32,000 nt of DNA from Halomicronema hongdechloris C2206 (GTDB lineage Bacteria > Cyanobacteriota > Cyanobacteriia > Phormidesmidales > Phormidesmidaceae). The DNA lies in contig NZ_CP021983.2 in NCBI RefSeq assembly GCF_002075285.3, positions 4,440,001 to 4,472,000 of the forward strand, in the 5' to 3' direction. The position numbers and the translations under genes were made by a program. Shown piece by piece: positions 2 to 18,923 of the stretch. Each line of letters starts with the position of its first letter. Positions within the stretch are counted from its first letter, which is position 1. The notes under the pieces are model-generated. The model ran no database searches. It saw only the letters and a list, made by a program, of their open reading frames with translations, and was not told the origin of the DNA.

Positions 2-1207
2 AACGTAATTGAAGCGCTACGCTTGCTAGCAAGAATTGCTGAGGGAGAACGACTTAGCCTTTTGGGTGGGCCTTATAAGCAAGACGAAACAATTTTTAGG
101 GGAGGAGTAGAGAATCTTGGCTATCGGGGTTCAAAATCTTTCGGGCTTTCTTGTGTAACAACAGAGCCAGAGTGGAAAGATCTCTCAATCGATTTAAGTC
201 TTGGAGGAGATGGAGATCTTCATGTTACCAAGGAAAAAATTACAAGTCATACTTCAACAGTTCCTTTGTATGAAATTACAAGCGCACCTCAAGGGGCTGG
301 AAGTGACGTATTTGTTACTTATAACAATTTTGCCAGAGGTGGGAAAAAACCTAGCATAGTATGCAGCAGTCATATGGCAATTTTTACACAACTTTTGAGT
401 GATATCCGCTTCCGTCCAGAGAACACTAAAAGTCGAAAAATAATTCCTAAGGTTGCTGAACGATATGTTCAATGGTTAAGTAGCATCGTATTTCTTGAGC
501 CTGAGCCAAGCTCAATGCGCTCTTATGGTCATAAAGTTGATAAGGTACTCAAAGAGCATGGTGAAAACCTTTCAGGGGTAATCTATAACTTATGTCTTAA
601 CCCAAATGTCAAAAGTTCGGTTCTGGATTTCGTTCAAAGTTTGCCTGAACAGGATATTGAAAATATCGATTTCATAGAAACACCTCGTGATGAGGTTATG
701 CTACAGCTAACTGAAACCTTTGGCGGTGCATCGACTACCTATGATGCTTCCATACTTTCAGATGGAACTTTACGCGTGCTCTCTATTGCTGCAGCAATGC
801 TTTCTGCACCTGAGCAAAGTTTAGTTGTTATTGAAGAAATCGATAACGGCGTACATCCTAGCAGAGCAGCAGATTTGTTAGAGCGGATTTCTAGTATTGC
901 AAAGAACCGTGATTTACGGGTTCTAATTAGCAGCCATAATCCCGCACTTCTTGATGCCCTGCCTGATGAAGCCATTCCTGAAACTGTATTTTGCTATCGA
1001 AGTCCTCAAGATGGATCAAGTCAGTTAGTTAGATTGCAGGACATTCCCGACTATCCCGAACTCATTGCTCAGGGGTCTGTTGGGCACCTCATGACTCGCG
1101 GACTATTAGAACGGTTTGTTAAGCAACATCCCGGAACAGAGCAGAAAAAGAAGAAAGCAATGGAGTGGCTAGCTTCTCTCGCTGTGGTAGGGGAACCGAG
1201 AGAATGA
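2..1207 (+). CDS. ABC/SMC-like ATPase of the AAA_15/AAA_21 type, 5'-truncated by the window edge (C-terminal ~400 aa)
   Basis: The frame is open from base 2 (NVIEALR... precedes the TTG at 23), so the Walker A part lies upstream of the window. ABC signature-like LSDGTLR at nt 755-775. Walker B LVVIEEID at nt 821-844. H-loop-like SSHNP follows. This spacing is typical of RecF/SMC-like AAA_21 ATPases. The region is AT-rich compared with the rest of the window. Confidence 0.75.
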   Translation, partial: NVIEALRLLARIAEGERLSLLGGPYKQDETIFRGGVENLGYRGSKSFGLSCVTTEPEWKDLSIDLSLGGDGDLHVTKEKITSHTSTVPLYEITSAPQGAGSDVFVTYNNFARGGKKPSIVCSSHMAIFTQLLSDIRFRPENTKSRKIIPKVAERYVQWLSSIVFLEPEPSSMRSYGHKVDKVLKEHGENLSGVIYNLCLNPNVKSSVLDFVQSLPEQDIENIDFIETPRDEVMLQLTETFGGASTTYDASILSDGTLRVLSIAAAMLSAPEQSLVVIEEIDNGVHPSRAADLLERISSIAKNRDLRVLISSHNPALLDALPDEAIPETVFCYRSPQDGSSQLVRLQDIPDYPELIAQGSVGHLMTRGLLERFVKQHPGTEQKKKKAMEWLASLAVVGEPRE

Positions 1208-1659
1208 AAGCAGTTGCAATTGTTGATACATCTATATTCTGCAATGTTCTCGATATTCCTCATATGAATAGTGAACGGACTCAGGTAATGCAAAAGTTGA
1301 AAGATTTACTTGAGGAAAGTACTAATCTTCTTCTACCTATGGCTGCCGTCTATGAAACAGGGAATCATATTGCTCAACTCAGTGATGGTGGAAACCGGCG
1401 TCAATTTGCTGAAGTTTTCATTGAGCAAGTCAAGAAAGCGATAAAAGGGGAAGCACCTTGGCAAGTTATGCAGCTGCCAGATATGGAGGAGGTTGGAGAA
1501 TGGCTAAGTAACTTTCCTGATTCAGCAATGCGTGGCGCAGGTATGGGAGACTTATCAATAATCAAAGAGTGGGAGAAGACGATTAGGATAACGCCCAATC
1601 ACCGTATTTTTATATGGTCTTTAGATGGCGATCTTCAGGGATATGATCATATTCCTTGA
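1204..1659 (+). CDS. Small PIN-like (predicted nuclease) protein, partner of the upstream ATPase
   Basis: The ATG at 1204 overlaps the upstream TGA (1205-1207) as ATGA, which suggests translational coupling. The 151-aa product has acidic residues in PIN order and spacing: AIVDTS near the N-terminus, YETGNH, GDLSIIKE, SLDGDL near the C-terminus. The PIN assignment is inferred from motif spacing only. Confidence 0.55.
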   Translation: MKAVAIVDTSIFCNVLDIPHMNSERTQVMQKLKDLLEESTNLLLPMAAVYETGNHIAQLSDGGNRRQFAEVFIEQVKKAIKGEAPWQVMQLPDMEEVGEWLSNFPDSAMRGAGMGDLSIIKEWEKTIRITPNHRIFIWSLDGDLQGYDHIP

Positions 1660-4569: not shown

Positions 4570-4995
4570 CTAGCCAGATACCGTGACGCCCATATTCCGG
4601 GCTGTCCCTTCCACGATGCGCATAGCCGCTTCAATATCGTTGGCATTGAGGTCGGGCATTTTGGTCTCGGCGATCTCTCGCAGTTGGTCACGGCTAATGG
4701 ATCCCACCTTTTGAGTGCGAGGTTCCCCGGATCCCTTCTCAATCCCGGCCGCCTTTTTAATCAAGACCGACGCTGGGGGAGTCTTGAGGATGAAGGTGAA
4801 GCTGCGGTCTTCAAACACCGAAATCTCGACTGGCACTACCAGCCCCACCTTATCCGCCGTTCTGGCATTGTATTCCTTGCAGAACGCCATGATATTGACG
4901 CCATGCTGACCTAGAGCTGGGCCAATGGGGGGAGCCGGATTTGCCTTCCCTGCTGGAATCGCTAATTTAATAATCGCAACTACTTTCTTCGCCAT
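4570..4995 (-). CDS. rplK: 50S ribosomal protein L11
   Basis: 141 aa: [43 protein letters not shown]... is canonical L11. Conserved position after nusG. Confidence 0.97.
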
Positions 4996-5960: not shown

Positions 5961-6200
5961 TGCCTATAGACTCCTGCGTATTCAACCTCGGCAACTCAAG
6001 CACACCAAATACTTTTACTAGCTGAATCAGCCTACGACAATGCATTTAGCGTCTGGCCTCAAGCTGCAAACTCCTTCTATGATAAGCAGTCTCATTGCCT
6101 GTCTGAAAGGCCCTCACCACCGAACGACAATTCTACCCGAAGTCCTGACACGTCAAGCTGAGTCCCTAAGAACTTCGGGTAGATTGTAATGGTGACTCAG

Positions 6201-6273
6201 CGCGCCCTGGAGGACTCGAACCCCCGACATCGGGTTTTGGAGACCCGCGTTCTACCAACTGAACTAAGGACGC
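6201..6273 (-). tRNA. trnW: tRNA-Trp (anticodon CCA)
   Basis: The reverse complement folds by hand as a 73-nt cloverleaf. Acceptor GCGTCCT/AGGGCGC, D arm GTTC-AGTTGGTA-GAAC, anticodon arm CGGGT-CTCCAAA-ACCCG, T arm GGGGG-TTCGAGT-CCTCC, discriminator G. No CCA is encoded. Typical location upstream of secE. Confidence 0.9.
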
Positions 6274-6711: not shown

Positions 6712-6909
6712 AGGGCCTGCAAAAACGCACAGTCTATTACACTACACTAGTAGAGCATCAAATATCAACACTCTGCTGGCTACGACAGCAATTCTCATTT
6801 TGGCGAAAAGCTGCTCAAGCTCTAGAACTGGACAGTGGAAAGTTTTCAGTCCGCTGGCAAGACACCAAGAAAAACGGACGTGGGTTAAGTCGAATCACCC
6901 ATCATGTCC

Positions 6910-6940
6910 AAAACTGGCTGATATAGAACGTTTCAGCCAG
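6910..6940 (-). terminator. Candidate intrinsic terminator downstream of gloB
   Basis: The minus-strand RNA is CUGGCUGA-(11-nt loop)-UCAGCCAG followed by UUUU. This is a perfect 8-bp stem. Confidence 0.45.
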
Positions 6941-7170
6941 CAATATTATGGAGCTATGCCAACGTCTTGAGCAAATCTTAGGGGAGACTGCGTCTAGTCT
7001 TTAGTCGGGAGTCCTCGTTTCGGTGGTTTGTCCTCTTGGTGTGGAGCATCCTCTCTTAATGCTCAACCTGCTACCGTCACCAGCTATGTGAATGCCCTGG
7101 GTTTGAATGAAGATGAAGGCGATGAAACCTGCTCCGACTTGGCCCACCAATCTTCCGCCTCCTACGGGGC

Positions 7171-12621: not shown

Positions 12622-13530
12622 CTACCCAGCGGTAGGTAAAAGGGTAAGCTGGCCCTGGTCACCATTGAGCTCTGCTGGCACACCCACTGGCAGGGCGGCG
12701 TTGACGCCATCATGGCCGAAGGGTAGATCGGAGACGACGGGAATGCCGAGATCGCCGATGCGATCGCACAGTACCTCAGCCACACTGAAGCTGGGTGTAT
12801 GCTCGGCGGGAAGACAGCGGCTAAAGCGCCCTAGGGCAATGCCACCAACTCGCTGGAGTTTGCCACTAGCCCGCCAATGGGTCAGCAGGCGGTCAATGCG
12901 ATAGGGAGCCTCAGTGACATCTTCTAAAGCCAGAATCACTCCGTCCAAATCAGGCTCATCGGCGGTACCTAACAGATGAGTAGCCACCGTCAAGTTGGCC
13001 GGAAGCAGTCGTCCCCGTGTTTTCCCTTGGTGCCAGCCCCGACCCTGTAAGGGGGCCACAGAACGGCCCTCGATCCAGTCAAATAGGCGCTGGCGCGACC
13101 ACTGCGGTTCCTGGGCCAGAGTAGTCAAGAGAGGTCCATGGACCCCGGCGATCCCCAGCTTGGCTAGACTCCACAACAGGCTGGTGATATCCGAAAAGCC
13201 AATCAGCCATTTGGGCTCGGTCGAAGGCCAACGCCACGCCTCCAGCAGGCGGGTGCCGCCAAAGCCGCCGCGGGCACAGAGGATGCCTCGACAATCCGGA
13301 TCCAGCCAGGCCTGCTGCAGTTGCTGGCGGCGAGCGGCATCATGGCCCGCCAGATACCCCCATTGGTGATCATAGCCAGGGCTCAGCTCTATGCGATAGC
13401 CCCGCCGCCGCCAGATATCTACCCCGGCCTGAAAAGCCTCCAACTCCCGTAAGGCACCACTGGGGGCAATTACCCGTAGACAATCCCCAGGTTGCAACGG
13501 CGGCGGTAACTGACAATCAGAACGGCGCAT
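12622..13530 (-). CDS. LD-carboxypeptidase (peptidase S66, LdcA-like)
   Basis: 302 aa. GFSDITSL provides the nucleophile Ser. Also has ARGGFGGTRLL and a C-terminal PFGHD His motif. Overall S66 architecture. Confidence 0.8.
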   Translation of the reverse strand: MRRSDCQLPPPLQPGDCLRVIAPSGALRELEAFQAGVDIWRRRGYRIELSPGYDHQWGYLAGHDAARRQQLQQAWLDPDCRGILCARGGFGGTRLLEAWRWPSTEPKWLIGFSDITSLLWSLAKLGIAGVHGPLLTTLAQEPQWSRQRLFDWIEGRSVAPLQGRGWHQGKTRGRLLPANLTVATHLLGTADEPDLDGVILALEDVTEAPYRIDRLLTHWRASGKLQRVGGIALGRFSRCLPAEHTPSFSVAEVLCDRIGDLGIPVVSDLPFGHDGVNAALPVGVPAELNGDQGQLTLLPTAG

Positions 13531-13933
13531 TGACAGGGCTACTCCTTAATCGGCCGTTCATTACTATACACACCGACCATTGAGACGGTTTTGGGACGCC
13601 TAGCGACGCTGCTCTCAGTAGTCTTAACTCAACAAGCCGGCGAGCTGCTAACCAGCAGTCATTCCAAGAAAGCAAGCATATTAGCCTGTTTCGCCAAGTT
13701 AGAGACGGGACTAGCCCTGGCTAGTCAGCCATTGGGCTACGGCAAACGCTCTGAAAGAGCACCCTAAGACCTAATTTGCAAAGGAATTCTTCAAAAGCTT
13801 GCAAGGCTAATAACAACCTTGAGGGAGCGTTTGCGGTGGTCCTAGAAGATTTGCCCTAACTGCTGTGTAGGCGTTTCGCAAATCACCCAAAGTAGCTCTT
13901 GATTCTCCATAAAAGTCTGGGCAGACTGGAGAG

Positions 13934-15040
13934 GTGCAACGGCTGTTCATCTGCTTAGAGGGGAGTCTCCTCGGCGACATCGTGTTACTCAAGACCTTCG
14001 ACATTGCTCCAGGGCAAGTTCAGACCTTCCTATGGGACGGAGGAGCGGAAGCATGGTCGCAGGTAATACTGGCTGAGGAAATTTGCTCAGCAAATCTACG
14101 GCTGGTGTTTCACAGCTGGCCCCAATTGTCCGAGCACGAGGGGATTATTCAGAGTGTGCTCCAGACCTTGGCAGAGGTTGTCTATAGACTCTGGCCCAGC
14201 TGGTATTGCCAGGACAACTTATTTGCCGATGATGCTACCACAGAAGCCGCCGTCCTCAACAGCTATCGCTGTCTAGACTGGCAGAGGCGTGAGGCTGGAG
14301 TATCGTTGCCATGGCTGAAAGCAGCCGTTCGAGCCCGACAGCAGGGCAAGGTGCCGCTTCTAGATCCATTTCCCCACTCTCTGCAGCTGGCTCAACTGGC
14401 CCTTGCCATTGACCCAGCCGGTATTGTTCTAGTCTTAGCCTTAGCGGAGCCCCGGCCTGCCGACCATCGTTTGTTGGCCTTAGCTAGGGCCGTCAATTGG
14501 ATAGCCATCCATTCACAGGCTCGTGTGGCCCTGTGGCTGCCTCAATCTCTAGCACAAGCGGCGGCGTTGGATTCGATCTTGTATGGCGCTAAGGTTCTGC
14601 CTTGCCCATTGACGGCGGCGGTTGCTACCGCTGAAGACGAAGCTAAACATGTGGTATTTCCCATCCACGGTAGACCGCATCCGTTTAGTCCAGGGGAGGA
14701 GAAATTGGCTCAATGGCTGGCTCGAGATAGGGAGTTAGGGCAGCTATTTAGCTTCAACCAGATGGTGAGGACGAAGAGGGGCCAGACCTATCTGGTAGAT
14801 TTGCTGTGGCTAGAGGGTCGGGTGATTGTTGAAGTGGATGGTTACCGCCACCACGGTAACCGGTTTGGGTTTAATCAGGATCGCCATCGTGACTATGACC
14901 TCCTGATCAGCGACTATGTGGTGCTGCGGCTGCCCCATGATGAGGTGCTCAACGATGTCGAAGTTGCGGTAGAAAAGATCCGCGACGTGGTGCGATTTCG
15001 TCGCCGACAGCTTTGTCATACCCGCGAGGTGTCTCTGTGA
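13934..15040 (+). CDS. Cassette gene A: unknown ~245-aa N-terminal domain fused to a C-terminal DUF559 / Vsr-like (restriction-endonuclease-fold) domain
   Basis: The C-terminal ~105 aa (nt ~14672-14989) read ...YLVDLLWLEGRVIVEVDGYRHHGNRFGFNQDRHRDYDLLISDYVVLRLPHDEVLNDVEVAVEKIRDV. This matches the D...E-V-D-G..H....D..RD....G..VLR pattern of DUF559. The start is uncertain: GGAG lies only 2 nt before the GTG at 13934. Its stop overlaps the start of the next gene. Confidence 0.75.
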   Translation: MQRLFICLEGSLLGDIVLLKTFDIAPGQVQTFLWDGGAEAWSQVILAEEICSANLRLVFHSWPQLSEHEGIIQSVLQTLAEVVYRLWPSWYCQDNLFADDATTEAAVLNSYRCLDWQRREAGVSLPWLKAAVRARQQGKVPLLDPFPHSLQLAQLALAIDPAGIVLVLALAEPRPADHRLLALARAVNWIAIHSQARVALWLPQSLAQAAALDSILYGAKVLPCPLTAAVATAEDEAKHVVFPIHGRPHPFSPGEEKLAQWLARDRELGQLFSFNQMVRTKRGQTYLVDLLWLEGRVIVEVDGYRHHGNRFGFNQDRHRDYDLLISDYVVLRLPHDEVLNDVEVAVEKIRDVVRFRRRQLCHTREVSL

Positions 15041-15696
15041 CTATTGAATTAACGCCCAAGCTGGATTTGGTGATTTGGAGTCTCCTAATCACAGGCGATG
15101 AACCGATGATGTCAAAGGTGAAGCCAGGCATAACGCCAACTGAGCGAAAAAAGCTGATTGATGCAGGTTTGATTCGATTGGAGAAACGAGGTCGAGCTTC
15201 TCATATTGTGCTAGAAGATAAAGCCTGGGATTGGCTGGCCACACGGTTGCAATCTCCAGACTTCACAGTCGAGTTCCCGAGTCGAGCTACGACTGCTATT
15301 CCCACATTTCAAGTCTTGCTAGGAAAAGTAGGGGAATTTTTGCGATCGCACAATATTTCCCTGGCTGAATTTCTCAACCCACCTCCTGAGTCCCACAAAC
15401 TGAATAATGATGATTTAGAGAAAGTTGCCGAAGTCGACTTAACAAAACATATACATGCTGCTTATACCAAGATTACAGGTGGTCAATACAGCGTTAGAGT
15501 GCGACTATCTGACCTACGACATAATCTATCTAATTTTTCTCGAGCTGAAGTTGACAGTGCATTGAGAAATATGGAGTTAGCTGGACATGTAGTCTTAATG
15601 CATTTAGACGATCCAGATGAAATCAAGCCAGAAGATGAGGCGGCAGCTGTCGATATTGATGGCCATAAAAGTCACATTTTATACTTAAAGGCTTAG
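15037..15696 (+). CDS. Cassette gene B: ~219-aa protein with two predicted winged-helix-like segments
   Basis: The GTG at 15037 overlaps the gene A stop as GTGA, with GAGG 7 nt upstream. The ORF is also open from the TTG at 15013. N-terminal part: LVIWSLLITGDEP..ITPTERKKLIDAGLIRLEKRGRASHIVLEDKAW. C-terminal part: VRLSDLRHNLSNFSRAEVDSALRNMELAGHVVLMHLDD. Both resemble wHTH recognition-helix plus wing segments, which is an inference. AT-rich. Confidence 0.7.
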   Translation: MTIELTPKLDLVIWSLLITGDEPMMSKVKPGITPTERKKLIDAGLIRLEKRGRASHIVLEDKAWDWLATRLQSPDFTVEFPSRATTAIPTFQVLLGKVGEFLRSHNISLAEFLNPPPESHKLNNDDLEKVAEVDLTKHIHAAYTKITGGQYSVRVRLSDLRHNLSNFSRAEVDSALRNMELAGHVVLMHLDDPDEIKPEDEAAAVDIDGHKSHILYLKA

Positions 15697-15707
15697 GATA
15701 TAGAACG

Positions 15708-18700
15708 GTGGAAAATTCGATTGCTTTTCAGGCTCTTCAATCTGTCGATTTTAACTGGACCATGCACATTAAAAGTGTATGGGAAGACATAATTGATGAT
15801 ATTGAGGGATTACACCAACAGGAACGCCACTTTATCGCCTCTGCCCTTGACCAACTCCTAAAGACATCTCAGCCGCTTGCGCCACTTGGCATTGTTATTG
15901 CAGGGGAGGGAGGTGTAGGTAAAACTCATCTCATTGGAGCAATTCGTAAATATACCATTACCCATGGGCTCAATTTTATTCTGGTCGATATGACTGATGT
16001 CCGTGACTTTTGGGAAACTGTTCTTCAGGGCTATATTAGTTCATTACAAGAAGATGCTGTTGATGGTACGGCCCAATTTCAACTAAGAGATTTAGTGGGT
16101 TATTTGGTTTCCCTGACAGGGAAATCGGTCTCTTCAGGTGTGATGGCTGCTCTGCCTGAGAAGTCTTTGAGAAATGCTATCAAGCACGTTTTGAATGCCC
16201 TAGCTCAAGTTGATCGGAAAGCTGCAGCCGAGTTCCAAGATGTCATCCGAGCCTTAATTTTGTTAAATTCTGATAGCTTTGAAATCTTGGGTATTGGTCA
16301 TACTTGGCTGCAGGGATTAGAAATCGAAACTGAGGATAAAACTCGATTTGGCTTCAGGCAAACTATTGCGACTAGTCCCAGGAAAATCGTACAGGGTTTG
16401 TCTTGGTTAATGAGTTTGCAGCGACCATCAGTATTGGCTCTCGATCAACTGGATTCTATCGTGATGCAACATCACTATGGAGCCGGTGGCTCTACAGATT
16501 TAGATCTATCAGAAGAACAACGTATCTCAAAAGCCATTATCGAAGGTATTGGCGGTGGATTAATGGCTCTACGTGATACCATCTATCGTACGCAAATAAT
16601 TGTTTCTTGTCTGGAATCAACCTGGAACGTTCTTGTAAATCAAGCTATTAGTACATTTCAAGATCGCTTTCATAGACCGCTCATCCTAGGACGAGTTATT
16701 AGTTCTGAAGTTGCTCGAGCCATTGTTGAAAAACGCCTTCAGCAGGCATATGAGCAGGTTGGTTTTGTTGCCCCCTACTCTACTTGGCCATTTTCCAAAT
16801 CATTTTTCCAATCTGCTATTCGTCATTCCCCGAGACGGATTTTAAAGCGTTGCTATGAGCATCAACAGCATTGCTTAGTGGCAGGAGAAATTCAGGAAAT
16901 TCATTCATTTGGTAACGACGTAGTCATAGATGATCCTCCTGTCGACCTCGAGGCAATTGATCAGGCATTCGCAACGGCTCAGCAACAGGTTGACATCAGG
17001 GCTGCCCTAGATGAGACCCAAGAAGATGCTGTGTTAGGGCAGTGGCTGCAAACCGCTGCAAAGTGCTTGGTTGCGGAGAACCCGACTCCAGATACGGTGG
17101 ACAGCGAGGTAGAGGTCAACTTTCCAGGCGGCAAAAATTATCCTCAACTTCACGCCAGGGTGAGGCTGATTTACCGCAACGAAGGGGACCGGGAGAAGCA
17201 TTTGTCCTTGAGGGCGCTGTTGCGATCGCATCATGCCGCCTACCGCGCCCGCCTGAAAACGGCCATGACCACGGCTGGTATCGACCATGCCCTGAGTTTT
17301 CGGCGGCTGCTCATTGTCAGAGTCGGTGATATTCCTGGTGGTGCAACTACTCAAGAATTGAGCCACCGATTTACTGAAGCAGGCGGCTTAATGGTCTATC
17401 CCGACGAGGCTGAATTGCGCCTCTTGGCAGCCCTGCATCAGATCAGGTCAATGGAACATTTTGATACCTGGCTGCATCAGCGTCGTCCAGTGTCACAACT
17501 GCGGTGCTTTCAATCCACCGTCACCTGGCTATTTGGCGATACCGTCGATGTATTCTCCTCTGGGAAAACGGTCTCTTCGGGGACGCTAGATTCCCCTCCT
17601 CAACCAGCACCTGACAAGCCAGATGAGTTGCCACTGAAATCGCCACATTCAGGAGATCACCCTGTCGCACCCTCGCCGGTTGGCCTGCCCATTGGCCGAC
17701 AGCTTAGACAGCCCCAAGACATCGTCGCGATTCCCCTAGAGGCCTTAACCAAACACATCGTCATCCTGGCCGGCAGCGGGGCGGGGAAAACCGTGCTGGT
17801 GCGTCGACTGGTGGAAGAAGCCATCCTGAAGCAGATCCCGGCCATTGTCATTGATGGGGCCAATGATCTGGCCCGCATGGGAGATCCATGGCCAGAAACA
17901 CCAGCGGCATGGGATCACCTCGACCGTCGCCAAGCCCAGCAGTACCATCAATCCGTCGATGTCGCCGTTTGGACCCCTGGCCGTGAAGCTGGCAATGCAG
18001 TCACCCTGAACCCGCTACCGGATTTTGCCGCCCTCACGAACAACGCCGATGAACTCAATCAGGCCATCGACATGGCCCGCGACAGTCTGCAAGATATCGT
18101 TGCCTCGGGCAATTCAGCCACGGCCAAGGTGCGGCGAGGCATTCTCAGAAATGCCCTAGAGGTGTTCGCAACTAACGGCGGCGGTGATCTTGAGGGCTTT
18201 GCCGACTTTTTAAGAGACCTCCCCGAGGATGCCGCCGGCAACATTTCTAGAGCCAGCCAACATGCCCAAGCCATGGCAGATTTACTCAGTGCAGAAATGG
18301 CCAACAATCCCCTCCTGCGTCAGAGTGGCGCCCCACTGGCCCCGGCCATTTTGCTAGGGCTAGAGGGTTCGTCTGCCAAAACTCGCCTCTCGATTCTCAA
18401 CTTTATTGGTCTGTCTGGACTGCCGCAGCAGCAGCAGTTCCTCCATCAACTGGCCATGACCCTATTTACCTGGATTAAGAAACACCCAGCCCCAGCAGGT
18501 CAACCCCTACGGGGGCTGCTGGTGATCGATGAGGCCAAGGACTTTTTACCGTCTCGGCAATCGACTCCCTGTAAATCCAGCCTGAATCGTCTCGCTGCCC
18601 AGGCTCGGAAATACGGGCTAGGGCTGATCTTTGCCACCCAAGCCCCCAAGAGTATTGACCATAATATTATCGCCAACTGCTCAACCCAGTTCTATGGGCG

Positions 18701-18923
18701 CAGCAATTCTCCAGCAGCGATCGATGTAGTGCGGGATCAACTCCAGCAACGCGGCGGCCAGGGGGACGATATTGCTCAACTGCAGCGAGGAGAGTTTTAT
18801 GCCGTTTCTGAATCAATCAATCCCCCGATTAAAATCACGGTGCCGCTGTGTTTGTCCTTCCATCCGCCCACTCCCTTAGATGAATCAGAGGTATTAGAGC
18901 GGGCCAAGCAATCTCGCCAATAA
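15708..18923 (+). CDS. Cassette gene C: 1071-aa double P-loop protein (N-terminal ORC/STAND-like NTPase plus C-terminal HerA/FtsK-like DUF87-type ATPase)
   Basis: The GTG start lies 11 nt after the gene B stop, with AGGA 9 nt upstream. Module 1 has Walker A GEGGVGKTH (aa 66-74, nt 15903-15929) and Walker B-like VLALDQLD (aa ~242-249). A Pro/Ser-rich linker spans aa ~620-665. Module 2 has Walker A ILAGSGAGKT (aa 686-695, nt ~17763-17792), IPAIVIDGANDL, Walker B LLVIDEAKDF (aa 937-946) and ARKYGLGLIFATQAPKSIDHNIIANCSTQFYGR. The last string is typical of HerA/VirB4/FtsK-clade ATPases. Confidence 0.85.
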   Translation: MENSIAFQALQSVDFNWTMHIKSVWEDIIDDIEGLHQQERHFIASALDQLLKTSQPLAPLGIVIAGEGGVGKTHLIGAIRKYTITHGLNFILVDMTDVRDFWETVLQGYISSLQEDAVDGTAQFQLRDLVGYLVSLTGKSVSSGVMAALPEKSLRNAIKHVLNALAQVDRKAAAEFQDVIRALILLNSDSFEILGIGHTWLQGLEIETEDKTRFGFRQTIATSPRKIVQGLSWLMSLQRPSVLALDQLDSIVMQHHYGAGGSTDLDLSEEQRISKAIIEGIGGGLMALRDTIYRTQIIVSCLESTWNVLVNQAISTFQDRFHRPLILGRVISSEVARAIVEKRLQQAYEQVGFVAPYSTWPFSKSFFQSAIRHSPRRILKRCYEHQQHCLVAGEIQEIHSFGNDVVIDDPPVDLEAIDQAFATAQQQVDIRAALDETQEDAVLGQWLQTAAKCLVAENPTPDTVDSEVEVNFPGGKNYPQLHARVRLIYRNEGDREKHLSLRALLRSHHAAYRARLKTAMTTAGIDHALSFRRLLIVRVGDIPGGATTQELSHRFTEAGGLMVYPDEAELRLLAALHQIRSMEHFDTWLHQRRPVSQLRCFQSTVTWLFGDTVDVFSSGKTVSSGTLDSPPQPAPDKPDELPLKSPHSGDHPVAPSPVGLPIGRQLRQPQDIVAIPLEALTKHIVILAGSGAGKTVLVRRLVEEAILKQIPAIVIDGANDLARMGDPWPETPAAWDHLDRRQAQQYHQSVDVAVWTPGREAGNAVTLNPLPDFAALTNNADELNQAIDMARDSLQDIVASGNSATAKVRRGILRNALEVFATNGGGDLEGFADFLRDLPEDAAGNISRASQHAQAMADLLSAEMANNPLLRQSGAPLAPAILLGLEGSSAKTRLSILNFIGLSGLPQQQQFLHQLAMTLFTWIKKHPAPAGQPLRGLLVIDEAKDFLPSRQSTPCKSSLNRLAAQARKYGLGLIFATQAPKSIDHNIIANCSTQFYGRSNSPAAIDVVRDQLQQRGGQGDDIAQLQRGEFYAVSESINPPIKITVPLCLSFHPPTPLDESEVLERAKQSRQ

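Follow-up and report, generated by a model that had tools for sequence, protein, structure and literature searches.

An Orc/CDC6-STAND-like AAA+ module is tethered to a HerA/FtsK-like ATPase in the third gene of a conserved mobile cassette

In a window of 32,000 nucleotides, we found that a 1071-aa double ATPase, here called gene C, is the third gene of a conserved mobile A-B-C cassette (Table 1). We consider it probable, with moderate confidence, that gene C is the central subunit of a mobile three-gene conflict system of the Orc/CDC6-type 'HerA/FtsK capture' plan, its order running from an AAA+ module through a presumed inactive restriction endonuclease (REase) fold, a small helical domain and a tether of 15-85 aa to a HerA/FtsK module with a four-helix insert. 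The earlier note did not remark on the three-gene cassette to which the gene belongs; the gene B HMM places B on the same strand, immediately upstream of C, in 87/89 loci.

Table 1. Positions of the cassette genes, and of the domains and motifs of gene C, within the window.
Feature	Position	Strand	Basis
Gene A, ~240-aa N-terminal domain and C-terminal DUF559/Vsr-like domain	13934..15040	+	Pfam DUF559 8.3e-10
Gene A DUF559/Vsr-like restriction-endonuclease-fold domain, aa ~272-353	~14747-14992	+	Pfam, PDB profile
Gene B, tandem winged-helix protein, 227 aa	15013..15696	+	TTG 15013; alternative ATG 15106
Recombinant block, B C-terminal half and AAA+ module of C	15380..16965	+	DNA identity vs L001; low GC
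Gene C, double ATPase, 1071 aa	15708..18923	+	GTG start; ORF listing and translation
C aa 1-400, Orc/CDC6-STAND-like AAA+ module	15708..16907	+	Pfam AAA_22, AAA_16 over cut-off
AAA+ Walker A, GEGGVGKTH, G66-H74	15903-15929	+	motif, translation
AAA+ Walker B, VLALDQLD, V242-D249, form hhhhDQhD	16431-16454	+	motif, translation
C aa 401-545, helical connector and REase-like core	16908..17342	+	AF2 segment model, Foldseek
C aa 546-613, helix-strand-helix-helix-helix domain	17343..17546	+	secondary structure
C aa 614-659, disordered Ser/Pro/Ala/Thr-rich tether	17547..17684	+	pLDDT <50, aa 615-653
C aa 660-1071, HerA/FtsK-clade ATPase without HAS barrel	17685..18920	+	sequence, Foldseek
HerA Walker A, GSGAGKT, aa 689-695	17772-17792	+	motif, translation
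HerA four-helix insert, aa ~773-890	18024-18377	+	helices 780-798, 804-822, 828-843, 849-866 (AF2)
HerA Walker B, LLVIDEAKDF, aa 937-946	18516-18545	+	motif, translation
HerA arginine finger R967 and sensor-1 Q978, within ARKYGLGLIFATQAP, aa 966-980	18603-18647	+	motif, 65/65; translation

Both Walker A/B sets lie in a single ORF, where the earlier note had placed them, and translation puts a Pro/Ser-rich stretch at about aa 620-660. Pfam AAA_22 (35.3 bits, cut-off 27) and AAA_16 (33.5 bits, cut-off 32.6) matched aa 46-167, and DUF87/HerA matched aa 673-743 (37.5 bits, cut-off 23.2). The RefSeq protein WP_088431799.1 (1053 aa) starts 18 aa downstream of the 1071-aa form, which is GenBank ASC73273.1; conservation of F15 and W17 at 90% or more among homologues favours the longer form as the probable start.

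The two ATPase sites and their fusion are strictly conserved, far exceeding chance. Full-length homologues number more than 120 (43-74% identity), the N-terminal half alone matched 930 representative clusters, and a full-length match to gene C was present in at least 77 of 80 genomic loci. Across 65 gene C loci from at least six phyla, K72, Q247, D249, R320, R376, K694, T695, D941, E942, R967 and Q978 were invariant (65/65), and D246 was kept in 64/65. The proposal that a single polypeptide carries two intact NTPase modules thus stands, and the first P-loop, which the earlier note allowed might be a degenerate remnant, retains its Walker lysine (K72) throughout. No natural two-gene version occurred among 88 loci surveyed for separately encoded modules, and both apparent splits inspected (L089 and L090, 2/2) were frameshifts of the fused gene. 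The chance that the ORF itself is an artefact, made by a sequencing frameshift that fuses two genes or by decay into a pseudogene whose first P-loop is dead, is negligible: nothing but an abrupt GC step within the ORF speaks for it, recombination with breakpoints at domain boundaries accounts for that step, and the homologues, the invariant catalytic residues and a confident full-length AF2 model (pLDDT 87.8) refute it.

The N-terminal module appears to be Orc/CDC6-STAND-like, as had been suggested, a clade placement drawn from Pfam-level matches and motif positions; AAA_22 and AAA_16 matched 44/44 gene C members and NACHT matched 38/44, below threshold. In the AF2 model, a large helical insert (aa ~115-238) separates strand 2 from the Walker B strand, with a mean column identity of 0.38 compared to 0.50-0.60 in the core; this insert and gene B are the fastest-evolving folded parts. 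R320 is a candidate arginine finger and R376 a candidate sensor 2. Replacing the Walker B glutamate by Q is established to trap classical AAA+ proteins in the ATP state. Because Q247 (65/65) takes the place of the AAA+ catalytic glutamate in the hhhhD-Q-h-D Walker B, the module might be a non-hydrolysing ATP-binding switch, regulating the ring only allosterically and performing no mechanical or loading work. We hold this to be rather unlikely, given that D249 is likewise 65/65 and that the D-x-x-D spacing is like that of the NACHT/STAND Walker B (hhhhDGhDE), whose downstream acidic residue may take part in catalysis; moreover, invariant R320 and R376 at candidate finger and sensor-2 positions would be needless for a pure binder.

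The ~220-aa segment that the earlier note left unassigned does lie between both modules, but it is not unassignable, since AF2 and Foldseek point to a REase-like fold followed by a helical domain. The core order in the AF2 segment model (pLDDT 87.9, pTM 0.78) is alpha-beta-beta-beta-alpha-beta. The canonical D...(D/E)xK is absent and H482...E496-x-H498 stands in its place, E496 being Q in 13/65 loci, along with four arginines, R502 (65/65) and R515, R532 and R538 (63/65 each). The best Foldseek match in the PDB was EcoT38I (E 2.7e-3, prob 0.97), other top matches being the Cap4 nuclease, EcoO109I and FAAP24, and BFVD matches included DUF2726, a restriction endonuclease, RPB5 and UL24. With a fold similarity of TM ~0.3, the domain may tentatively be read as an inactive, binding-type REase. 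The domain at aa 546-613 has an invariant W588 (65/65), P594 in 63/65 loci and a conserved RRPVS motif; a search for a winged-helix match to it obtained none, and by its position it may correspond to the Orc/CDC6 C-terminal wHTH of the published architecture, as far as the available text describes it. The low-complexity linker noticed earlier is indeed disordered (pLDDT <50) and unconserved (column identity 0.14); S, P, A and T make up 48% of its residues, and its length varies around a median of 47 aa across the family.

Sequence and fold both place the C-terminal module in the HerA clade, R967 and Q978 occupying clade-defining positions, in agreement with its first description as HerA/FtsK-like. 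Foldseek matched it to the HerA hexamers 4d2i and 9x1m (E 7.4e-13), and further matches were SIR2-HerA, DUF4297-HerA and TrwB, with HerA-NurA among the best structural matches. Furthermore, the module matched a PDB profile (8xau, 2.3e-12) and PADLOC mad8 (1.8e-26, profile positions 15-299 of 314), and the Pfam families TrwB_AAD_bind and FtsK_SpoIIIE matched in 31-36 of 44 gene C members.

Gene A, directly upstream in 42/89 loci, encodes a putative effector nuclease with a catalytic-type motif. Its profile matched PDB 3hrl, an 'endonuclease-like protein' (E 2.4e-13), D289, E300, D302, H307, D316, R319 and D320 were invariant in 35 homologues, and the window copy is 91% identical to that of the syntenic relative L001. 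The A slot is exchangeable between partner families, with ParA-like proteins in 12 loci, TPR proteins in 5 and an unknown family in about 9. In gene B (mean column identity 27%), the N-terminal half (aa ~1-120) matched the MarR-type wHTH ZitR (E 2.6e-4), and the C-terminal half (aa ~121-227) gave non-significant winged-helix hints only (Z-alpha, 0.055; DUF6293_C WH in 6/44 members). Searches of Pfam, PADLOC and PHROG returned no family for gene B; PADLOC has no model for the whole cassette and gave no significant defence-family match for genes A and B.

Comparison of the window with L001 delineated a 1.6-kb recombinant block, inside which DNA identity was ~0.55 against ~0.9 in both flanks, and GC3 was 0.34-0.38 against 0.55-0.60. 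Gene B was 85-100% identical over aa 1-120 and 15-30% over aa 121-227, where one patch (DDPxEIxPEDEAAA) is conserved; gene C was ~50% identical over aa 1-420 and about 90% from aa 421 onward, mostly 95-100% outside the linker. The recombinant allele is the window's, not that of L001. An independent second pair, L091 and L092, had the same left breakpoint, and in both pairs the left breakpoint fell in the inter-domain linker of gene B and the right ones at domain boundaries of gene C. The wholesale replacement of the B C-half and AAA+ module in the window relative to L001, which is new here, together with the left breakpoint shared by the second pair, suggests that a specificity unit can be exchanged while the motor stays constant. 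The co-transfer could reflect hitch-hiking of contiguous DNA and not co-adaptation, for which a mirror-tree test gave 0.85 vs 0.81.

'HerA/FtsK capture systems' have been predicted by comparative genomics as an anti-invader class (Nucleic Acids Res 2024;52:1005, PMC10853773), and the available text of that paper presents HerA/FtsK domains that are either coupled to an Orc/CDC6 AAA+ with inserted inactive REase and wHTH or fused to one; PMC12839542 restates the Orc/CDC6-type prediction. By description, the predicted domain plan of the cassette agrees point by point with section 22 of PMC10853773, as far as its available text goes. The plan comprises an AAA+ of the Orc/CDC6 family whose core is followed first by an inactive REase and then by a small helical domain in the place of the wHTH, and a HerA/FtsK ATPase that lacks FtsK-alpha but bears a four-helix insert. 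It further comprises a nuclease with an active REase fold as a separate protein and a multi-wHTH protein that evolves rapidly; the neighbourhoods are mobile, and the domains may be combined in one polypeptide or spread over several. The class has two active REase families, of which DUF559 may be one. The two-NTPase fusion, which the earlier note thought unusual, has already been described there, and the gene C family is widespread; the recognition layer that it envisaged on a translocase ring agrees with the class prediction. Our literature search found no experimental work, on defence or otherwise, on the Orc/CDC6-type class or the gene C family, so that the fusion has precedent as a predicted class yet is uncharacterised. 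The recombinational swap of the AAA+ with its wHTH partner, the invariant DQxD Walker B, and the occupation of the nuclease slot by ParA-like, TPR and other proteins are seen here and not described in the available text of PMC10853773.

On the capture plan, the HerA modules would form a hexameric DNA-translocating ring. Six tethered Orc-like modules, acting with the winged helices of B and with the inactive REase domain and its arginines, would use ATP to recognise or load onto either invader DNA or an intermediate of replication, packaging or transfer, whereupon the ring would reel the DNA in and the A nuclease would cut it. The recognition half (B C-terminal domain and AAA+ core, sometimes with the REase-like domain) would be swapped between loci by recombination, motor and nuclease remaining constant.

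The genomic surroundings of the cassette were unrelated in each of the 7 contexts first examined; one copy (L006) adjoins type I R-M and toxin-antitoxin genes and another (L090) adjoins Mrr and type ISP R-M, while that of the window lies between mutS and uvrD among housekeeping genes, not in a defence island. Mobility also befits a mobile element's own machinery for transfer, segregation or replication initiation, in which an Orc-like initiator or loader would work with an FtsK/TraB-like pump to move or partition the DNA of the element. Conjugative pumps belong to the HerA/FtsK clade, the fold matches include TrwB and the TrwB_AAD_bind and FtsK_SpoIIIE matches recur across members, a ParA/MinD-like ATPase fills the A slot in 12 actinobacterial loci, and the available text of PMC10853773 notes features of mobile elements as well as of defence systems. 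We nevertheless judge this alternative to defence improbable, as the contexts examined show no integrase, transposase, relaxase or replication gene accompanying the cassette, the conserved genes are only three, the partner seen most often is an endonuclease that keeps its catalytic residues, some copies lie in defence islands, and in the window and L001 the cassette is stable at one chromosomal site flanked by core genes.

A cellular DNA-repair or end-resection complex like HerA-NurA, with the Orc-like module as a damage or structure sensor and DUF559 as a Vsr-like repair nuclease, would suit the HerA-NurA structural match, the Vsr-like character of DUF559 and the location between mutS and uvrD. 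These neighbours, however, are kept only in L001 among the contexts compared, the distribution is patchy in keeping with horizontal transfer, recombination acts on a hypervariable recognition half, the nuclease slot is exchangeable, and a NurA or Mre11/Rad50 partner is absent; we give this explanation very little credence.

As a probable capture-type system, the cassette shares parts with several known families. Gene C has the AAA_16/NACHT-type P-loop, D-x-x-D Walker B and presumed sensor/switch role of STAND NTPases (NACHT, NB-ARC; AVAST/Avs), but it lacks a C-terminal TPR, WD40 or LRR sensor array, its effector is an ATPase motor and not a death domain, and its matches to Avs2 and NACHT fall below threshold and cover only the P-loop. 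The mad8 protein of Pseudomonas aeruginosa MADS (mad1-mad8) is the same compact HerA-like ATPase type as the C-terminal module; it lacks the AAA+ and REase-like N-terminal half, and no other gene of that eight-gene operon is present here. DndH/DptH of DndFGH (and SspH-like proteins) are likewise large multidomain proteins that end in a 'captured' HerA/FtsK ATPase, with REase and DNA-binding domains ahead of it, and that work with wHTH partners (DndG-like); DndH differs in its ~1700 aa, eight different N-terminal domains and lack of an Orc/CDC6 module, and PADLOC DndH matches to gene C were marginal (E 0.03-0.07). In SIR2-HerA and DUF4297-HerA (PDB 8wod, 8xau, 8zit, 9c1m), which rank with the best structural matches of aa 660-1071, a HerA-clade hexamer scaffolds or drives a defence complex whose effector is a nuclease or NADase, and the middle domain of gene C weakly resembles the Cap4/DUF4297-type nuclease fold. 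Sequence similarity to gene C extends only over the C-terminal ~150 aa (E ~1e-8). Their HerAs are stand-alone proteins of ~570-700 aa with an N-terminal HAS barrel, whereas gene C has the AAA+, REase-like and tether regions fused upstream in place of a barrel, and the effector here is a separately encoded DUF559 protein.

Every motif that an earlier note on this DNA had quoted for protein C, the double ATPase of the cassette, was located in the translation where that note had placed it. GEGGVGKTH (aa 66-74) and VLALDQLD (aa 242-249) lie in the N-module, and GSGAGKT (aa 689-695), LLVIDEAKDF (aa 937-946) and ARKYGLGLIFATQAP (aa 966-980) in the C-module, with a Pro/Ser-rich stretch at approximately aa 620-660. 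Pfam assigned AAA_22 (35.3 bits, cut-off 27) and AAA_16 (33.5 bits, cut-off 32.6) to aa 46-167 and DUF87/HerA to aa 673-743. Two database entries, WP_088431799.1 and ASC73273.1, give the identical protein, and the window comes from the cyanobacterium Halomicronema hongdechloris; the RefSeq entry is annotated with 1053 aa from a start 18 codons 3′ of the GTG at 15708 (window 15708-15764), and the GenBank entry, with 1071 aa, agrees with the longer ORF. Given that the shorter start drops F15 and W17, each conserved in at least 90% of C homologues, the 1071-aa form is the better model.

Positions of the cassette genes and identity of their parts to L001, the syntenic relative of the window
Feature	Position	Strand	Remarks	Identity to L001
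Gene A	13934-15040	+	upstream of B, overlaps B	
Gene B	15013-15696	+	11-nt gap to C	
Gene C	15708-18923	+	1071 aa, GTG start (ORF listing)	
DNA	13900-15400			~0.9
DNA	15400-16900			~0.55
DNA	16950-18850			~0.9
Protein A				91%
Protein B	aa 1-120			85-100%
Protein B	aa 121-227		except one conserved patch	15-30%
Protein C	aa 1-420			~50%
Protein C	aa 421 onward		mostly 95-100% outside the linker	about 90%

The fusion of the two ATPase modules is real and obligate, and both active sites are conserved. A word-indexed search with C returned 451 relatives, of which the best 120, nearly all 1045-1125 aa long, were 43-74% identical to the query and aligned to 98-100% of its length. When aa 1-640 alone served as query, exhaustive HMMER searching yielded 930 representative clusters, 398 of them below 1e-30; most of these proteins were 1050-1170 aa long. 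Scanning one genome per species gave 80 C loci from Cyanobacteria, Planctomycetota, Myxococcota, Alphaproteobacteria, Hydrogenedentota and many Actinomycetota; a separate look-up added a copy in Chloroflexota (Caldilineaceae). By tblastn, three of the 80 loci matched only the C-terminal module: two of them, L079 and L087, are single fused ORFs of ~1100 aa with a divergent N-half in which Walker A is still present, and L076, the third, runs into a contig end. The representative search also contained an excess of 600-650-aa proteins that might have been stand-alone N-modules; this reading was rejected, as both inspected cases proved to be frameshifts of the fused gene. In L089 the frameshift falls inside a conserved WLxxRRPVS motif (~4780-4810), and in L090 it falls at an A8 run in the linker (~6880-6960), so that the downstream 'gene' is called from the middle of a conserved LPvGlRLiG motif. 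Neither the 80-locus scan nor the two inspected 600-650-aa cases provided a natural two-gene version of C. The earlier note had allowed that the ORF might be two genes joined by a sequencing frameshift, which is contradicted by at least 120 full-length homologues and by the inspected splits being frameshifts themselves. Its other reservation, that the first P-loop might be a degenerate remnant lacking a conserved Walker lysine, does not hold either: across 65 non-redundant loci from several phyla, K72 was invariant (65/65), as were Q247, D249, R320 and R376 in the N-module and K694, T695, D941, E942, R967 and Q978 in the C-module, with D246 present in 64 of the 65. As a separate observation, the frameshifted public copies L089 and L090 are annotated as two genes and could represent sequencing errors, pseudogenes or phase-variable switches.

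The C-module is a compact mad8-like HerA core. Its Walker A (AGSGAGKT, aa 688-695) and Walker B (LLVIDE, aa 937-942) fit GxxGxGK[ST] and hhhhDE, respectively. Foldseek comparison of a full-length AlphaFold2 (AF2) model, built from a 49-sequence alignment (mean pLDDT 87.8), against the PDB retrieved HerA (4d2i and 9x1m, E 7.4e-13), SIR2-HerA, DUF4297-HerA, D. radiodurans HerA and TrwB (1e9s, 1.7e-9); a profile search agreed (8xau, 2.3e-12), and the PADLOC mad8 profile matched the module over nearly its whole length (E 1.8e-26). Against PHROGs, this module showed nothing beyond generic similarity to terminase, FtsK and Zot. A comparative-genomic study (PMC10853773) marks the HerA/FtsK clade by two residues around core strand 4, an arginine finger shortly before it and a glutamine sensor-1 at its end; both features are present in C, as R967 lies just upstream of the modeled strand 971-977 and Q978 at its end. 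The HAS barrel is absent from the modeled protein, in which only two short strands (660-665 and 672-675) precede the P-loop strand and the region upstream is a disordered linker. A four-helix insert (aa ~773-890; helices 780-798, 804-822, 828-843 and 849-866) is placed by the model between core strands 750-755 and 892-898.

The predicted secondary structure of the N-module follows the AAA+ order, with strand 1, the P-loop, strand 2 and a Walker B strand (241-246), followed by strand 295-302, helix 315-320, strand 325-327 and a helical lid. Candidates for the arginine finger and sensor 2, respectively, are R320, which ends helix 315-320 ahead of strand 325-327, and R376, at the start of helix 375-392. 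In the model, a helical insert of ~120 aa (aa ~115-238) separates strand 2 from the Walker B strand. In the AAA+ classification this location, past strand 2/helix 2, would be that of the initiator-specific motif (ISM); the insert is far bigger than a canonical ISM. Walker A reads GxxGxGKTH, and Walker B is invariantly hhhhD246-Q247-h-D249, a glutamine replacing the usual AAA+ catalytic glutamate. Because D249 is invariant and the D-x-x-D spacing presumably recalls the NACHT Walker B, we do not conclude that the module is dead for hydrolysis. A Pfam census of 44 members found AAA_22 and AAA_16 in all 44, nSTAND_NTPase5 in 41 and NACHT in 38, which makes 'Orc/STAND-like' a fair label for this predicted NTPase. 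Both module assignments made in the earlier note were therefore borne out: the ORC/STAND-like NTPase by this census, and the HerA/FtsK-like ATPase by its motifs, fold matches and R967/Q978. Foldseek with the full-length model returned HerA-type matches only and is thus silent on the N-module, and single-sequence and profile searches of the PDB gave nothing above P-loop-level noise for aa 100-660.

Between the two modules, the segment at aa 401-613, which had been left unassigned, was laid out by AF2 as a helical connector, an alpha-beta-beta-beta-alpha-beta core (aa 461-545) and a helix-strand-helix-helix-helix unit. A separate model of aa 392-661 (pLDDT 87.9, pTM 0.78) matched EcoT38I (E 2.7e-3, prob 0.97), the Cap4 nuclease domain, EcoO109I and FAAP24 in the PDB, weakly (TM 0.3), and DUF2726, a phage restriction endonuclease, RPB5 and UL24 in BFVD, also weakly; though weak, all of these matches share one fold, that of restriction endonucleases (REase). 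This segment lacks the canonical D...(D/E)xK motif; conserved instead are H482...E496-x-H498, with Q in place of E496 in 13 of 65 loci, and the arginines R502 (65/65), R515, R532 and R538 (63/65 each). This pattern, together with the modeled fold, fits an inactive, binding-type REase domain. The helical unit behind it occupies, by location, the position of the wHTH in the plan of PMC10853773. In the full-length model the chain is disordered only at aa 615-653, and the corresponding linker (aa 614-659), with a column identity of 0.14, a length of 15-85 aa and a composition rich in S, P, A and T, looks like a tether.

An HMM of protein B, the tandem winged-helix protein, located it immediately 5′ of C in 87 of 89 loci, and the two misses are contigs without room upstream. 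Its N-half matches the MarR-type ZitR (E 2.6e-4), winged-helix hints for its C-half are weak, and its mean identity is 27%. Protein A carries a C-terminal DUF559/Vsr-like endonuclease domain (3hrl, 2.4e-13) with invariant D289, E300, D302, H307, D316, R319 and D320; its N-domain of ~240 aa gave no match. The order A-B-C was found in all seven contexts first examined, which have unrelated flanks: L001 and L002, both syntenic with the window, L003 (Leptolyngbyaceae JSC-12), L004 (Synechococcus PCC 7336), L007 and L008, and L006, a Caldilineaceae contig on which the cassette adjoins type I R-M and toxin-antitoxin genes. In L090 the neighbors are a DEAD helicase, Mrr and a type ISP R-M system, and flanks are likewise unrelated in cyanobacteria, Chloroflexota and others; the cassette is mobile. 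In the window it lies between housekeeping genes, with rplJ, rplA, nusG, mutS, a rhomboid protease and an LD-carboxypeptidase on one side and HEAT, CBS, M42, uvrD and htrA genes on the other. A scan for promoters and terminators gave chance-level results.

A itself is present in 42 of the 89 loci. In 12 others its slot holds a ParA/MinD-like ATPase, in 5 a TPR protein and in ~9 an unannotated family; further occupants include an SMC-like protein in Sorangium. Kinship of the ParA-like and ~350-aa families to the DUF559 protein was rejected by profile comparison, and since the alternatives are unrelated to A, B and C constitute the invariant core and A an exchangeable slot. The ParA/MinD-like protein, ~543 aa long, occurs in Amycolatopsis, Lentzea, Nocardia and relatives (L058 3734-5371, L087 1765-3381 and 10 more actinobacterial loci), and one copy has a C-terminal CATASP (CATRA-associated small protein) domain; its presence suggests a system variant with a different effector or localization component.

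The cassette is best filed as a well-delimited member of a class predicted, but to judge from our literature search, later work included, not experimentally studied. Among the 'HerA/FtsK capture systems' of PMC10853773 (NAR 2024), one class comprises mobile neighborhoods encoding an Orc/CDC6 AAA+ ATPase, an active REase and wHTH domains, combined in single or multiple polypeptides; its authors propose that Orc/CDC6 localizes the restriction apparatus on DNA and that HerA/FtsK intercepts invader DNA and pumps it toward the nuclease, a proposal restated in PMC12839542 (2026). The window cassette matches the plan of this class domain for domain. Where the class has an inactive REase inserted between the AAA+ core and the wHTH, C has a putative REase-fold domain in place (by weak matches) and a helical unit after it; where the class has an active REase-fold nuclease nearby, the window has A, a predicted DUF559 nuclease with invariant D289/E300/D302. 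The wHTH component of the class has its counterpart in the fast-evolving B, in which the first wHTH is supported and the second half is weakly WH-like. The motor likewise lacks FtsK-alpha and carries an inserted four-helix bundle, and the unrelated flanks correspond to the mobile neighborhood of the class. The view in the earlier note that such a fusion is unusual has been overtaken by this 2024 prediction.

Other placements fared less well. MADS is an eight-gene mad1-mad8 operon that includes a methyltransferase, and the window has only the mad8-like module, next to A, B and housekeeping genes. SIR2-HerA and DUF4297-HerA were rejected since the neighbors contain no SIR2 or DUF4297 match. STAND in the strict sense does not apply to C, which has no TPR, WD40 or LRR repeat sensor; its NTPase is followed by the REase-like domain, the tether and HerA. 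The structures of the SIR2-HerA and DUF4297-HerA defense complexes were solved only recently, and to our knowledge HerA is a separate subunit in all solved HerA defense complexes, with a poorly understood activation signal. In C, by contrast, an NTPase and a REase fold of the DNA-binding type are joined to the motor by a flexible tether.

The part that appears to be new is a record of recombination within the cassette. Between nt ~15250 and 16900 the GC content is ~0.42, down from ~0.55, and B and C aa 1-400 have a GC3 of 0.34-0.38 versus 0.55-0.60 all around. P0002, the C protein of L001, is congruent, the nearest relatives of its N- and C-parts both being P0004/P0005, whereas the nearest relative of the window N-part is P0006 at only 58%; the window allele is therefore the recombinant, with an unsampled donor of lower GC. 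An independent pair, L091 and L092, displays the same arrangement: B aa 21-120 are 85-100% identical, the C-half of B and C aa 1-~610 ~65%, and C from aa 620 essentially 100%. In both events the left breakpoint lies in the inter-domain linker of B, and the right breakpoints coincide with domain boundaries of C, at aa ~420 (a pLDDT dip) and at aa ~615 in the disordered tether. These comparisons show that the GC step inside gene C reflects modular recombination at domain boundaries and not an assembly fault. L094 and L095 were rejected as a third clean mosaic event, their identity dip being diffuse only. Across the family, evolution is faster in the N-half than in the motor, with a column identity of 0.38 in the helical insert versus 0.63-0.71 in the HerA core, and some pairs share C-modules at 97-99% and N-modules at 65-66% identity. 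A mirror-tree test of the B halves against the C modules gave a correlation dominated by deep phylogeny.

In the proposed mechanism, the HerA modules would assemble into a hexameric ring bearing six tethered Orc-like modules, which may, together with B and the arginine-rich inactive REase domain, carry out ATP-dependent recognition or loading; the ring would then translocate target DNA, and A would cleave it. The swapped block would in this scheme be the specificity determinant. We put forward only tentatively, and consider somewhat doubtful, the further reading that the C-terminal domain of B and the Orc-like AAA+ core, including a hypervariable helical insert of ~120 aa, form a self-contained, exchangeable target-specificity cassette, like hsdS shuffling in type I R-M, so that recombination re-aims a constant HerA motor and nuclease. 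If true, the swapped block would be a programmable specificity cassette, and six sensors tethered to one translocase ring would constitute a 'sensor-on-motor' immune architecture without characterized precedent. The C family lends itself to studying how a translocase ring is directed to its target and activated, and the window locus and its syntenic relative, which differ almost only in the recognition block, form a ready-made allele pair for specificity.

Several further observations concern the surroundings of the cassette. The ~400-nt intergenic region 5′ of gene A (window 13531-13933) does not align to L001 (identity 0.00-0.36 over nt 13450-13900), and its flanking genes are 80-90% identical to L001; an indel or the replacement of a promoter or regulatory region could account for this. 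A tRNA-Trp (CCA) at 6200-6273 (-), between the nusG/rpl cluster and gloB and ~7.6 kb from the cassette, bears no sign of use as an integration site. In two Leptothoe genomes a 515-aa AAA_16/AAA_22/AAA_35 protein (L094 7545-9092, L095 6353-7900), followed by an ARMT1-like gene, is encoded just downstream of the cassette and may form with it a further Orc-like conflict gene pair. Finally, two overlapping ORFs in a low-GC patch (0.41-0.45) at window 23-1659 (+) match the PADLOC candidate system PDC-M07 (component A, an AAA_21/ABC-type ATPase, E 5e-167; component B, 7e-61). Because the profile match of the ATPase begins at position 43, its gene is probably truncated by the left edge of the window or has its start 5′ of the called TTG; this region is a second defense-type island in the window.
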